Notes: generated from the letters alone by a model not told the origin. Counted from the first letter of the stretch, positions 14,654-16,087 are shown. The stretch is 64,000 nucleotides of DNA from Candidatus Uhrbacteria bacterium GW2011_GWC2_41_11 (GCA_000996355.1 LCAH01000007.1:11089-75088); one strand, 5' to 3'. Numbers and translations: made by a program.

Positions 14654-16087
14654 ATGAACGATTTAGAGTTTGGTCGAACATCCTACCTGATTCGCGATTT
14701 GATATTTGGAGATAGTGGAAAGGGAACTATCGGAGAGTTTCTCACATGGTGGCTTGATCAATTCGCGCCAATTTGGTCAAAGGTTCATACAGTCATTCGG
14801 ACCGAGGGTGGTCATCAGGCCATACACAACAATATCCTTCCCGATGGACGACATCATGGATTTTCCCAGTTTGGGTCGGGAAGTCTCACGTCTCCGATTT
14901 GGACACACCATGCAAAGGGAATGATGGTCGAGCCACTGCACGCACTTGACGAGGGAAAGGATTTGCAGCATTTGGGCGTGCGGGATATCTTCGGCCGTTT
15001 GACTGTGAGTCGCGATATCCGAATAGTGACGCCGTTTCAACAGGCAGCCAACCGTCTTCGCGAATATGCTCGAGGAGTCGGACGGCACGGAAGTTGCGGA
15101 AAAGGGATTGGTGAAACTGCATCTGATGCACTTGCGATCGGAACCGATGCTCTTTATGCAAGAGATCTGATGGATTCTGCAATCCTTCGGGAAAAGTTGT
15201 CTCAGATTCAGGCATACAAGCTGGCTCAGCTCGCAGATCTGATATATCGATTTGGAGATGACAAAGCAATCTCGGCAGAGATCGACTGGCTCACAAATAC
15301 GGCAGCTTCATCGATTCTCGTCGCGTATCTTGGCGAGTTCGTCGAACGCGTGAAGATCGTGGAGAATGCACACATTGGTGGAATTCTTTCCAGGCCGGGT
15401 TCGGTGATTTTTGAGGGAGCGCAAGGAGTTCTCATTGATGAGTGGCGCGGGTTTCACCCGTACACGACATGGAGTACCTGTACGTTTGACAACGCGCTCG
15501 AACTTCTCCGCGAACACCAGTATGACGGCAGGATTGTCCGGATCGGAGTTGTCCGCGCGTATGCAACACGACACGGTGCCGGACCATTTATGACAGAAGA
15601 TCCATTTCTTACCAATGCACTTCCGGACACATATAACGTGACGGATGTTTGGCAACAGACGTTCCGTGTCGGCTGGTTCGATGCTGTGGCTGCTCGATAC
15701 GCAATTGCAGCATGTGGTCAGGTAGATGCATTGGCTGTCACTTGTCTTGATCGAATGCGTGATTTATCTCAGTGGCTCATCTGCACCGGATATGAATTAT
15801 CTGAAGATGATTCGAATGCGGCAAAGTTTTTTGAACTGGATCCGCAAAATCCGAGGATTGCGCGTAATATTCGGCTTGGACCTCACAAAGATCTCGTTTA
15901 TCAAGAGACCTTGACTGAGCAGTTGAAGCGTGTGAAGCCGATATATGAAGTCTCTGCCAATGCAGCAGACTTTGGCCAGCGTGCAGAGCAGCATCTTGCA
16001 CGAATCGAATCTGAACTCGGCGTGCCGGTCGCTATCACATCCTACGGTCCAACCGTTCTGGACAAGCGAATGGTACGCCCCGTTTAA
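14654..16087 (+). CDS. adenylosuccinate synthetase (PurA)-like ligase, divergent
   Basis: Collinear PurA motifs. GDSGKG (PurA GDEGKG), GGHQAIH (GGHNAGH), VIFEGAQGVLID (FEGAQGTLLD), GVVRAYATRHGAGPFMTE (KAYSTRVGAGPFPTE), GVPVAITSYGP (GVPIDIISTGP). The Asp-binding TTGRRRR box is replaced by TDVWQQTFR. Confidence 0.75.
   Translation: MNDLEFGRTSYLIRDLIFGDSGKGTIGEFLTWWLDQFAPIWSKVHTVIRTEGGHQAIHNNILPDGRHHGFSQFGSGSLTSPIWTHHAKGMMVEPLHALDEGKDLQHLGVRDIFGRLTVSRDIRIVTPFQQAANRLREYARGVGRHGSCGKGIGETASDALAIGTDALYARDLMDSAILREKLSQIQAYKLAQLADLIYRFGDDKAISAEIDWLTNTAASSILVAYLGEFVERVKIVENAHIGGILSRPGSVIFEGAQGVLIDEWRGFHPYTTWSTCTFDNALELLREHQYDGRIVRIGVVRAYATRHGAGPFMTEDPFLTNALPDTYNVTDVWQQTFRVGWFDAVAARYAIAACGQVDALAVTCLDRMRDLSQWLICTGYELSEDDSNAAKFFELDPQNPRIARNIRLGPHKDLVYQETLTEQLKRVKPIYEVSANAADFGQRAEQHLARIESELGVPVAITSYGPTVLDKRMVRPV

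Follow-up and report, generated by a model that had tools for sequence, protein, structure and literature searches.

A PurA-fold enzyme with a replaced L-aspartate pocket, encoded in a mobile cassette with kinase-like and von Willebrand factor A proteins

A 64,000-nucleotide (nt) stretch of DNA from Candidatus Uhrbacteria bacterium GW2011_GWC2_41_11 (GCA_000996355.1, LCAH01000007.1:11089-75088), hereafter the window, was analysed, and positions are counted from its first letter. The subject is the gene at 14654-16087, which encodes a 477-residue protein of the adenylosuccinate synthetase (PurA) fold, here called PurA-like. As read from the alignment, its GTP-binding and phosphotransfer residues are retained, and the L-aspartate pocket is replaced together with part of the site for the 5′-phosphate of inosine monophosphate (IMP). 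The gene closes a three-gene operon that is conserved and horizontally mobile, with co-transcription inferred from gene order. The two genes before it encode a predicted pseudokinase and a von Willebrand factor A (vWA) protein. An earlier note on this DNA had described the enzyme by itself and missed this main feature, its membership of a conserved mobile cassette. With the balance of evidence tilting somewhat in its favour, our overall reading is that the PurA-like gene is a neofunctionalised paralogue of the bacterial long-form adenylosuccinate synthetase, belonging to a large uncharacterised PF00709 clade, and that its product would be a GTP-dependent purine-C6 ligase using an amine other than aspartate, in a complex with its partners or under their control.

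The open reading frame (ORF) was intact and carried a GGAGG ribosome-binding site 6 nt 5′ of the ATG. Pfam PF00709 matched the PurA-like protein at 192 bits over profile positions 7-411 of 416. The HMMER alignment to Escherichia coli PurA spanned residues 18-384, and identity to E. coli PurA was 27-38%, compared with 38-56% inside the clade. An AlphaFold2 model built with 60 homologues as input had a mean predicted local distance difference test score (pLDDT) of 91.5, with low confidence in the loop at residues 266-272. Foldseek superimposed this model on solved bacterial, plant and mammalian PurA structures (including 1CG1, 4M9D and 1IWE) with a target-normalised TM-score (TMt) of 0.82-0.84 at 22-26% identity, so that the modelled protein is of the PurA fold. 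The query-normalised score (TMq) was 0.71-0.76 to PurA structures versus 0.53-0.57 to PurZ structures (7ODX, 6TNH, 7VF6). All NCBIfam equivalog models for PurA scored the protein far under their cutoffs of 337-700 bits. TIGR00184 gave 131 bits against a cutoff of 395.6, and the best equivalog model, NF002223, gave 150.7 against 402. The PurZ model NF038379 (amino_Aden_PurZ) gave 25.2 bits against a cutoff of 300. Homologues of the protein numbered in the thousands in a homologue search, and public annotations label them "adenylosuccinate synthetase".

The active site was compared across 203 clade members aligned with E. coli PurA and phiVC8 PurZ. Residue numbers are those of the window protein, cassette features lie on the plus strand throughout, and the ligand-contacting residues of E. 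coli PurA are those which we take to be established from structures such as 1GIM and 1CG0. The GDSGKG, GGH, FEGAQG and AYATRHGAGPF motifs listed in the earlier note were all present in the ORF at the implied positions, and its claim that the GTP and catalytic machinery is retained held for D20, K23, H58, Q257, D366 and S463. The GTP P-loop GDSGKG (residues 19-24) and the segment GGHQAIH (residues 52-58) lie at 14708-14827. They supply D20 (E. coli D13, catalytic base and Mg ligand; 97% of the family), K23 (K16, the catalytic P-loop Lys; 96%) and H58 (H41, catalytic acid; 96%), and with Q55 all four positions were conserved at 96-97%. Further on, G146 corresponds to G127 at the IMP ribose (96%), Q257 to Q224 at the IMP base (95%), I261 to the IMP contact L228 (Leu or Ile in 96%) and T272 to T239 at the IMP 5′-phosphate (91%). 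Q257 and T272 belong to FEGAQGVLIDEWRGFHPYTTWSTCTF (residues 253-278; 15410-15487), which opens with FEGAQG (residues 253-258) and holds E263, W264 and W273 as new conserved residues. At the guanine site, D366 (D333; 97%) was kept within VTCLDR (residues 362-367; 15737-15754), the equivalent of E. coli LTKLDV. The motif S463-x-G-P, read here as SYGPT (16040-16054), matches the S414-x-G-P contact with guanine O6 (Ser in 94%). As predicted from these residues, the PurA-like enzyme retains the GTP-binding and phosphotransfer machinery, and its counterparts of Gln224, Leu228 and Thr239 would still hold the 6-oxopurine base.

Judged by the same alignment, the pocket for L-aspartate is replaced, as is part of the IMP 5′-phosphate site. 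The E. coli L-aspartate box NEFGATTGRRRRTGWLD corresponds to NVTDVWQQTFRVGWFD (residues 328-343; 15635-15682). Within it HMMER placed VTDVWQQTFRVGW opposite E. coli GATTGRRRRTGW without a gap, and E. coli PYVTSSNTTAGG paired with PYTTWSTCTFDN of the PurA-like protein. Across the 203 family sequences, W333 (95%) and Q334 (96%) occupy the place of E. coli T300/T301 (T301/G302 in the gapless register), and F337 (88%) that of R305. The R303 position was variable, with Arg in 33%, Gly in 31% and Gln in 16%, and is Q335 in the window protein. One box arginine was kept, R338, which was conserved at 97% and aligns with R306, fourth among the arginines of the E. coli box. The earlier claim that the aspartate-clamping arginines had been lost is therefore right for R305 and, in the window protein, for the R303 position, but not for R338, nor for the third of the family that has Arg at the R303 position. 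V273, which lines the aspartate pocket in E. coli, is replaced by H307 (His in 96%) within AYATRHGAGPF (residues 302-312; 15557-15589). Taken over the aligned site, positive charges were lost and His, Trp-Gln and Phe were gained. The note's further statement that the IMP-contacting segment is changed was borne out. The IMP-phosphate ligand N38 is Q55 (96%), T129 is C148 (94%), and R143, which comes from the other subunit, has no conserved equivalent. C148 lies in RHGSCGKGIGET (residues 144-155; 15083-15118), which stands in place of E. coli AIGTTGRGIGPA and brings the new conserved residues R144, H145 and E154. In the guanine-specificity element (S/T)KxD, K331 is Cys, His or Asn in the family and Cys in the window protein, and the E. 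coli 40s loop is replaced by the loop GRHHTFAQFGS.

These replacements were not peculiar to the window. H307, W333, Q334, F337, C148, E154 and W273 were each conserved at 88-97% in the 203 relatives, and the conserved gains of the clade comprised R144-H145, E154, E263-W264, W273 and N280. E. coli PurA shared 52 of the 91 columns conserved at 90% or more in the clade and differed at 39, and PurZ shared 33. The window protein departed from the clade at 4 of the 91 columns (family median 1, 95th percentile 6.6). Because the replacements are conserved family-wide, the altered pocket is read as re-specified under purifying selection and not as decaying, and the conservation pattern makes a new specificity likely. 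The different substrate proposed in the earlier note is upheld to this extent; the changed substrate itself is what we infer.

In the window the PurA-like gene is preceded by the kinase-like gene (11824-13551) and the vWA gene (13570-14580), with 18 nt between the first and second genes and 73 nt between the second and the PurA-like gene. The order kinase-like, vWA-like, PurA-like was also found in all five contigs sampled through PurA-like homologues, which came from Chloroflexota, Saccharibacteria, Binatia and an organism resembling the candidate phyla radiation (CPR). A scan of one genome per species with two clade-specific peptide patterns gave at least 561 loci for the clade. The best 80 of these at least 561 loci were pooled with the five homologue contigs and the window to give 86 loci (numbered L below), and the counts of upstream partners rest on the 62 with at least 3.5 kb upstream and on a crude ORF caller. 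A kinase-like homologue was present in 68 of the 86 loci and was adjacent upstream on the same strand in 51 of the 62. The vWA-like gene was adjacent in 52 of the 62, and both partner genes were present in 49. Most missed partner genes were over-extended ORFs in high-GC genomes, that is, calling artefacts. Moreover, at least eight loci showed a 4-nt overlap between the vWA-like stop and the start of the PurA-like gene. By consensus match only, a promoter-like site (TTGACA, 16 nt spacer, TG, TATACT; 11 of 12 matches) occupies 11584-11611, ahead of the kinase-like gene, and 22 nt past the PurA-like stop a terminator-like hairpin and T-run (16109-16133) close the operon before a convergent gene.

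The first cassette gene encodes a 575-residue kinase-like protein with an N-terminal Zn-ribbon region followed by a CK2-like fold with a degenerate catalytic loop. PHROG phrog_3043 ("kinase") matched it at E 4e-21, and a profile of 38 homologues made from locus-derived sequences matched CK2 alpha in the PDB at E 2e-12. The catalytic loop HQHGIILGSVLPSHIL and the DFG/DWG-equivalent FLGWPYA lie at 13111-13206. The family reads HGAxLPxH where the canonical loop is HRDxKPxN, and the window copy reads LGSVLPSH, so that the catalytic Asp, Lys and Asn are missing. The DWG variant of DFG was common to the kinase-like family and CK2 alpha. The beta3 Lys (VIIKV, 12808-12822) and the alphaC Glu (12856-12882) were invariant in the 38 sequences. 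From this pattern the product is predicted to be a pseudokinase, or else an atypical kinase or an atypical nucleotide-binding adaptor. Its N-terminal region contains the zinc-ribbon-like motif CSHCG...CPFC (residues 104-131; 12133-12216). In most kinase-like homologues elsewhere, a J-domain bearing HPD takes its place: this motif was found in 39 of 68 homologues, and two or more CxxC in 14 of 68, the window included. Read from the J-domain-like motif, the kinase-like protein would recruit Hsp70 in most lineages.

The second gene encodes a 336-residue cytoplasmic protein of the vWA fold with an intact metal ion-dependent adhesion site (MIDAS), an N-terminal extension peculiar to the family, and disorder in its C-terminal tail. 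A Rossmann-like vWA fold with a D-x-S-x-S ... D metal site is predicted for it, in which the motif DVSGS (residues 70-74; 13777-13791) is partnered by D182-E183 (14110-14124). At E 1e-30 or better, a vWA profile searched against the full library matched 1,046 clusters (50% identity), and in nearly all of them the alignment began at residue 1. Among 132 full-length representatives taken from 50%-identity clusters, D-x-[ST]-G-S was present in 125. The conserved N-terminus of the family follows M-G-[small]-[small]-x-[W/Y/F], with 128 of the 132 starting Met-Gly and 122 having an aromatic sixth residue; the window copy begins MAKGW (13570-13584). The tail had pLDDT below 50 over residues 325-336 and ends in RRL (14569-14577), and an Arg-Leu end occurred in about 50 of 77 vWA copies at the loci and in 51 of the 132 representatives. 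In the pooled loci, K471 of the PurA-like protein, in its C-terminal GPTxxDK, was Lys in 42 of 42 loci with an Arg-Leu-ending vWA and in 21 of 26 others, with Val in Massilia, L077 and L085. This pattern may reflect a contact of the vWA tail with the enzyme; it is too weak and too confounded by phylogeny, and was not used as support. Rosetta-stone fusions were sought among long vWA-like proteins, and only one intein copy (P0271) and frameshift read-throughs (P0281, P0258) were found, none of them informative. P0271 (581 residues) has about 250 extra residues with a weak Hint-module match, inserted just after KKGY and immediately ahead of the strand with the MIDAS GDE motif, a critical region for function and as such a typical intein site. 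Tandem vWA-like pairs stand 5′ of the PurA-like gene in one Uhrbacteria and one Anaerolineae locus (L008, 5693-7897; L009, 750-2817). A structure search of BFVD with the vWA model returned generic viral vWA proteins only.

The cassette was found in CPR bacteria, Chloroflexota, Actinomycetota, Myxococcota, Proteobacteria, megaplasmids and mycobacteriophages. PurA-like homologues of about 38% identity were present in 202 Mycobacterium phage records of the phage collection, and further copies lie on Rhodococcus megaplasmids. In Mycobacterium phage Catera the trio is gp249 ("kinase"), gp250 and gp252 ("PurA-like"). An additional 88-residue gene, gp251 (phrog_3263), lies between the vWA-like and PurA-like genes of Catera (L089, 1763-6320), and gp247, a polynucleotide-kinase/phosphatase-like haloacid dehalogenase (HAD) protein, is directly upstream of the cassette. 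On the Rhodococcus opacus megaplasmid pR1CP1 the cassette is followed by a Nudix gene, in Massilia it is accompanied by an NrtR-type gene and an SPFH gene, and it was also found in a Polyangiaceae genome. The clade is concentrated in CPR lineages and in filamentous or developmentally complex bacteria, the latter including Chloroflexota (with Ktedonobacteria and Oscillochloris), Myxococcota, Actinomadura, Spirillospora and Micromonospora, which recalls the reported distribution of other conflict systems in "multicellular" prokaryotes. The flanks were not conserved, as 142 flanking proteins fell into 135 Pfam families. In the window, the GC content at third codon positions was 0.43-0.49 for the cassette together with orf164, which lies upstream (10997-11491) and matched no family, compared with 0.28-0.39 for neighbouring genes, the murG-like, hydrolase, translin-like and murD genes among them having 0.28-0.37. 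The cassette is taken to be mobile because of these non-conserved flanks and the deviant third-position GC in the window. The GC values suggest that a block of about 5 kb (10997-16087) was horizontally acquired, perhaps with orf164 included.

A canonical purA gene was found 2.8 kb downstream of the PurA-like gene in the Anaerolineae locus L029, with GDEGKG, GTTKRGIGP, GATTGRPRRCGW and TKLD. Since this locus holds both genes, canonical purA and the PurA-like gene are paralogues. No recurrent adenylosuccinate-lyase-like gene was seen near the cassettes, either among the neighbour families or in the Pfam scan of flanking proteins. The only recurrent extra gene encodes a protein, Nudix plus winged helix, of the type of NrtR, the Nudix-related transcriptional regulator of NAD metabolism. 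It adjoins about 30% of the cassettes (26 of 86 loci), which we count as a link of the cassette to nucleotides, and does not occur in the window. Its RE-x2-EE Nudix box was intact in actinobacterial copies and degenerate elsewhere, and to our knowledge the NrtR regulons known to date are without PurA-like genes. Two loci have neighbours related to NAD or nucleoside salvage, namely a PnuC transporter of nicotinamide mononucleotide in L031 (2718-3083, minus strand) and S-adenosylhomocysteinase, PfkB kinase and NT5C nucleotidase genes in the Saccharibacteria locus L003 (10191-14117). These may be there by chance, or may be tied to the NrtR-type regulator.

The mechanism that we propose for the PurA-like enzyme would keep the first half of PurA chemistry and change the second. 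GTP would be used to phosphorylate O6 of an IMP-like nucleotide, and the phosphate of the 6-phosphoryl intermediate would then be displaced by an amine other than L-aspartate. Candidates for this amine are ammonia, a neutral or hydrophobic amine, and a protein amino group. This displacement would yield AMP or an N6-substituted adenine nucleotide, and with another small amine the product could be a modified nucleotide acting as a signal or toxin. Gene order suggests that the enzyme acts in complex with, or gated by, the vWA protein and the pseudokinase. The cassette would thus be an accessory module, possibly for phage-host conflict or for nucleotide or stress signalling, and not for housekeeping purine synthesis. 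Its patchy and mobile distribution, its presence in both phages and bacteria and its vWA/kinase pairing, which resembles that of TerY-P, suggest phage-host conflict or stress signalling, a role that is speculation on our part.

Several observations weigh against this proposal. Both partner genes were absent nearby in 4 of the 62 loci (L026, L061, L069, L071), and L063 was without the kinase-like gene; the core pocket was kept in all five, so the PurA-like enzyme may work alone. The partnerless copies vary at E263, W264 and W273, which suggests from the alignment that these three residues face the partner proteins. Together with the kept core pocket, this variation is a mild argument for a small-molecule substrate. 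With N38, T129, R143 and K331 altered, a nucleotide other than IMP may be the substrate, and the enzyme may have given up the dimeric active site of PurA. The window kinase-like copy also has no Asp of the DW motif (GW for DW in FLGW). As to a role in conflict, the cassette has no obvious toxic effector, PADLOC found nothing for the vWA-like or PurA-like proteins and only a weak PD-T4-6 match (E 3e-4) to the kinase-like protein, and Pfam revealed no recurrent defence genes among the 142 flanking proteins. Scattered defence-type genes were seen in single loci, AbiE in L004 and PIN, patatin and AAA_15 in L002 and L088. A part in defence, though conceivable, is thus unsupported by these scans.

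The readings closest to the one preferred here keep an active enzyme and differ in the amine. A one-step GTP-dependent IMP aminase using ammonia, an "AMP synthase", is a special case of the proposed purine-C6 ligase in which the bulky residues leave room for NH3 only, and we consider it unlikely, if worth attention. At the very positions that bind aspartate, positive charge was removed and bulk added (V to H, TT to WQ, R to F), no lyase partner recurs, the carriers include phages and CPR bacteria, and E. coli PurA itself accepts hydroxylamine in place of aspartate. This explanation, however, does not account for the need for a vWA protein and a pseudokinase or for the altered 5′-phosphate site, and no glutaminase or ammonia-channel partner was found. 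If true, it would give adenine nucleotides without PurB, possibly useful to phages and reduced genomes. The amine could also belong to a protein, with the purine nucleotide ligated to the N-terminal glycine of the vWA protein after Met removal to give an N6-linked adduct, maybe bound by the pseudokinase. The Met-Gly start in 128 of 132 vWA representatives, followed by small residues and an aromatic position 6, is unusual N-terminal conservation; at least eight loci show translational coupling between the vWA-like gene and the PurA-like gene; the aspartate pocket is now aromatic and uncharged; and the pseudokinase keeps the nucleotide-binding Lys and Glu without the catalytic Asp. Yet this support is purely circumstantial, the partnerless copies have the same core pocket, the window vWA protein starts Met-Ala-Lys-Gly, and we know of no precedent for PurA-type chemistry on a protein, so that ligation to protein is improbable. 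We would place equally low its extension to a conflict switch, in which the glycine would carry an N6-linked adenine-nucleotide tag, the dead kinase pocket would read the tag and the J-domain would link to Hsp70.

The remaining explanations depart further from a re-specified enzyme. A non-catalytic GTP-binding subunit, acting as switch or scaffold in one signalling complex alongside the vWA protein and the pseudokinase, would fit the adaptor-like character of two of the three cassette proteins, the changes in substrate-contacting residues of PurA, and the fact that the SIMIBI P-loop NTPases, the class to which PurA belongs, include switches. It is distinctly improbable, as the catalytic Asp, His and Gln are conserved at 95-97% along with the new pocket residues, and a pure switch needs neither. 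The protein could instead be a housekeeping adenylosuccinate synthetase that diverged through fast protein evolution in CPR bacteria. It matches PF00709 over its full length with all catalytic-core motifs, its homologues bear that name in public annotations, and in two CPR loci the gene adjoins central-metabolism genes without partner genes. Against this stand an equivalog score of 150 bits for a cutoff of 402, replacement of V273, T300/T301, R303 and R305 by residues conserved across phyla and not by lineage-specific drift, a coexisting canonical purA in L029, the occurrence of the clade in phages and on megaplasmids, and the lack of a recurrent adenylosuccinate lyase gene nearby; this explanation is highly improbable. 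A decaying pseudogene or non-functional relic, which the loss of canonical substrate residues might suggest, is effectively refuted. The earlier note had named a pseudogene with disrupted core motifs as what would overturn its view, and what was found is an intact ORF with a ribosome-binding site, core motifs in place, pLDDT 91.5, deviation at 4 of 91 conserved positions and thousands of homologues. Similarly refuted in effect is an enzyme of the PurZ type making 2-aminoadenine (Z) nucleotide precursors, although PHROG family 1211 and RefSeq phage names read "2-aminooxy adenylosuccinate synthetase". NF038379 gave 25 bits for a cutoff of 300, TMq was 0.53-0.57 to PurZ versus 0.71-0.76 to PurA, the catalytic Asp is kept where PurZ has Ser, the PurZ aspartate box keeps its arginines, and no DatZ, MazZ/DUF550, DutZ or DpoZ was found among the genes near the PurA-like gene in the window and the sampled contigs. 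The likeness to PurZ drawn in the earlier note is conceptual only, the protein being a derivative of long-form PurA by its TM-scores of 0.82-0.84.

The preferred reading, a GTP-dependent purine-C6 ligase with partners, can be set beside the known systems. Like PurA (EC 6.3.4.4; TIGR00184; PDB 1CG0/1GIM), the clade is long-form, with GDxGKG, the catalytic Asp and His, the FEGAQG Gln, the Thr239 equivalent, the guanine Asp and SxGP. It differs from PurA in the aspartate pocket, the IMP 5′-phosphate site, K331, the 40s loop and the equivalog score, and also in its operon with a pseudokinase and a vWA gene and in its co-occurrence with canonical purA. PurZ/PurZ0 (6FM1, 7ODX, 7VF6; N6-succino-2-amino-2′-deoxyadenylate synthase) is likewise a PF00709 enzyme that has been repurposed by phages, and the clade is likewise phage-borne. 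However, PurZ is short-form (about 340 residues) and archaeal-like, whereas the clade protein is long-form with 477 residues. PurZ keeps the aspartate-box arginines and uses L-aspartate, whereas the clade lost the aspartate pocket. PurZ travels with DatZ, MazZ and DpoZ, and the clade with kinase-like and vWA-like genes. PurZ replaces the catalytic Asp13 by Ser (PMC12884076), whereas the clade keeps D20. A tree of 767 viral PF00709 proteins placed 251 in a PurA group and 151 in a PurZ group, with the rest undiscussed (PMC12884076). A full-text literature search found no publication on the PurA-like clade or the three-gene cassette, and the three-gene module is without a described counterpart. 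PHROG phrog_1211 and RefSeq phage records such as NC_008207.1 lump PurZ with the PurA-like clade under "2-aminooxy adenylosuccinate synthetase", a naming by which cluster C mycobacteriophages could be mistaken for Z-genome phages.

The nearest organisation among vWA systems is that of TerY-P, a triad of the vWA protein TerY, a Ser/Thr kinase and a PP2C phosphatase, reportedly described by Anantharaman, Iyer and Aravind in 2012 and said to have been found anti-phage by Gao et al. in 2020. TerY-P likewise has a cytoplasmic MIDAS vWA gene beside a eukaryotic-type kinase-fold gene in a compact mobile operon. The present cassette, in contrast, is without a phosphatase, its kinase fold is without the catalytic Asp, and its third component is PurA-like. 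A PADLOC-DB v2.0.0 scan of the three cassette proteins gave no TerY-P match. Zn-ribbon/vWA adaptor pairs (archaeal ArnA-ArnB, the Sec23/24 core, TFIIH p44) and integrin beta I-like domains are also comparable, but the enzymes associated with them differ from that of the cassette.

Downstream of the cassette in the window, the convergent ORF at 16178-16936 (minus strand, 252 residues) had no match in Pfam, NCBIfam, PADLOC or PHROGs. It does not belong to the conserved cassette, and a terminator-like hairpin of its own is at 16167-16148. The next gene (16980-17630, plus strand) encodes a 216-residue protein that matched Pfam Translin at 66 bits; NCBIfam PRK14562, "haloacid dehalogenase superfamily protein", also matched, far under its cutoff. 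A translin-like protein is unusual in a CPR bacterium.

PurA chemistry, in which the purine C6 carbonyl is activated with GTP and then attacked by an amine, was long thought to serve one reaction. PurZ demonstrated that phages can redirect this chemistry and thereby change the chemistry of DNA. The clade described here looks like a third, much larger redirection. The database labels "adenylosuccinate synthetase" and "2-aminooxy adenylosuccinate synthetase" are probably wrong for its members, and such mislabels inflate predicted purine biosynthesis in CPR genomes and predicted Z-DNA in phages. Homologues occur in genetically tractable systems, namely Mycobacterium smegmatis phages, Rhodococcus and Massilia. 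Knowing the substrate could bring to light a nucleotide new as a metabolite or signal, a single-step conversion of IMP to AMP, or nucleotide-protein conjugation.

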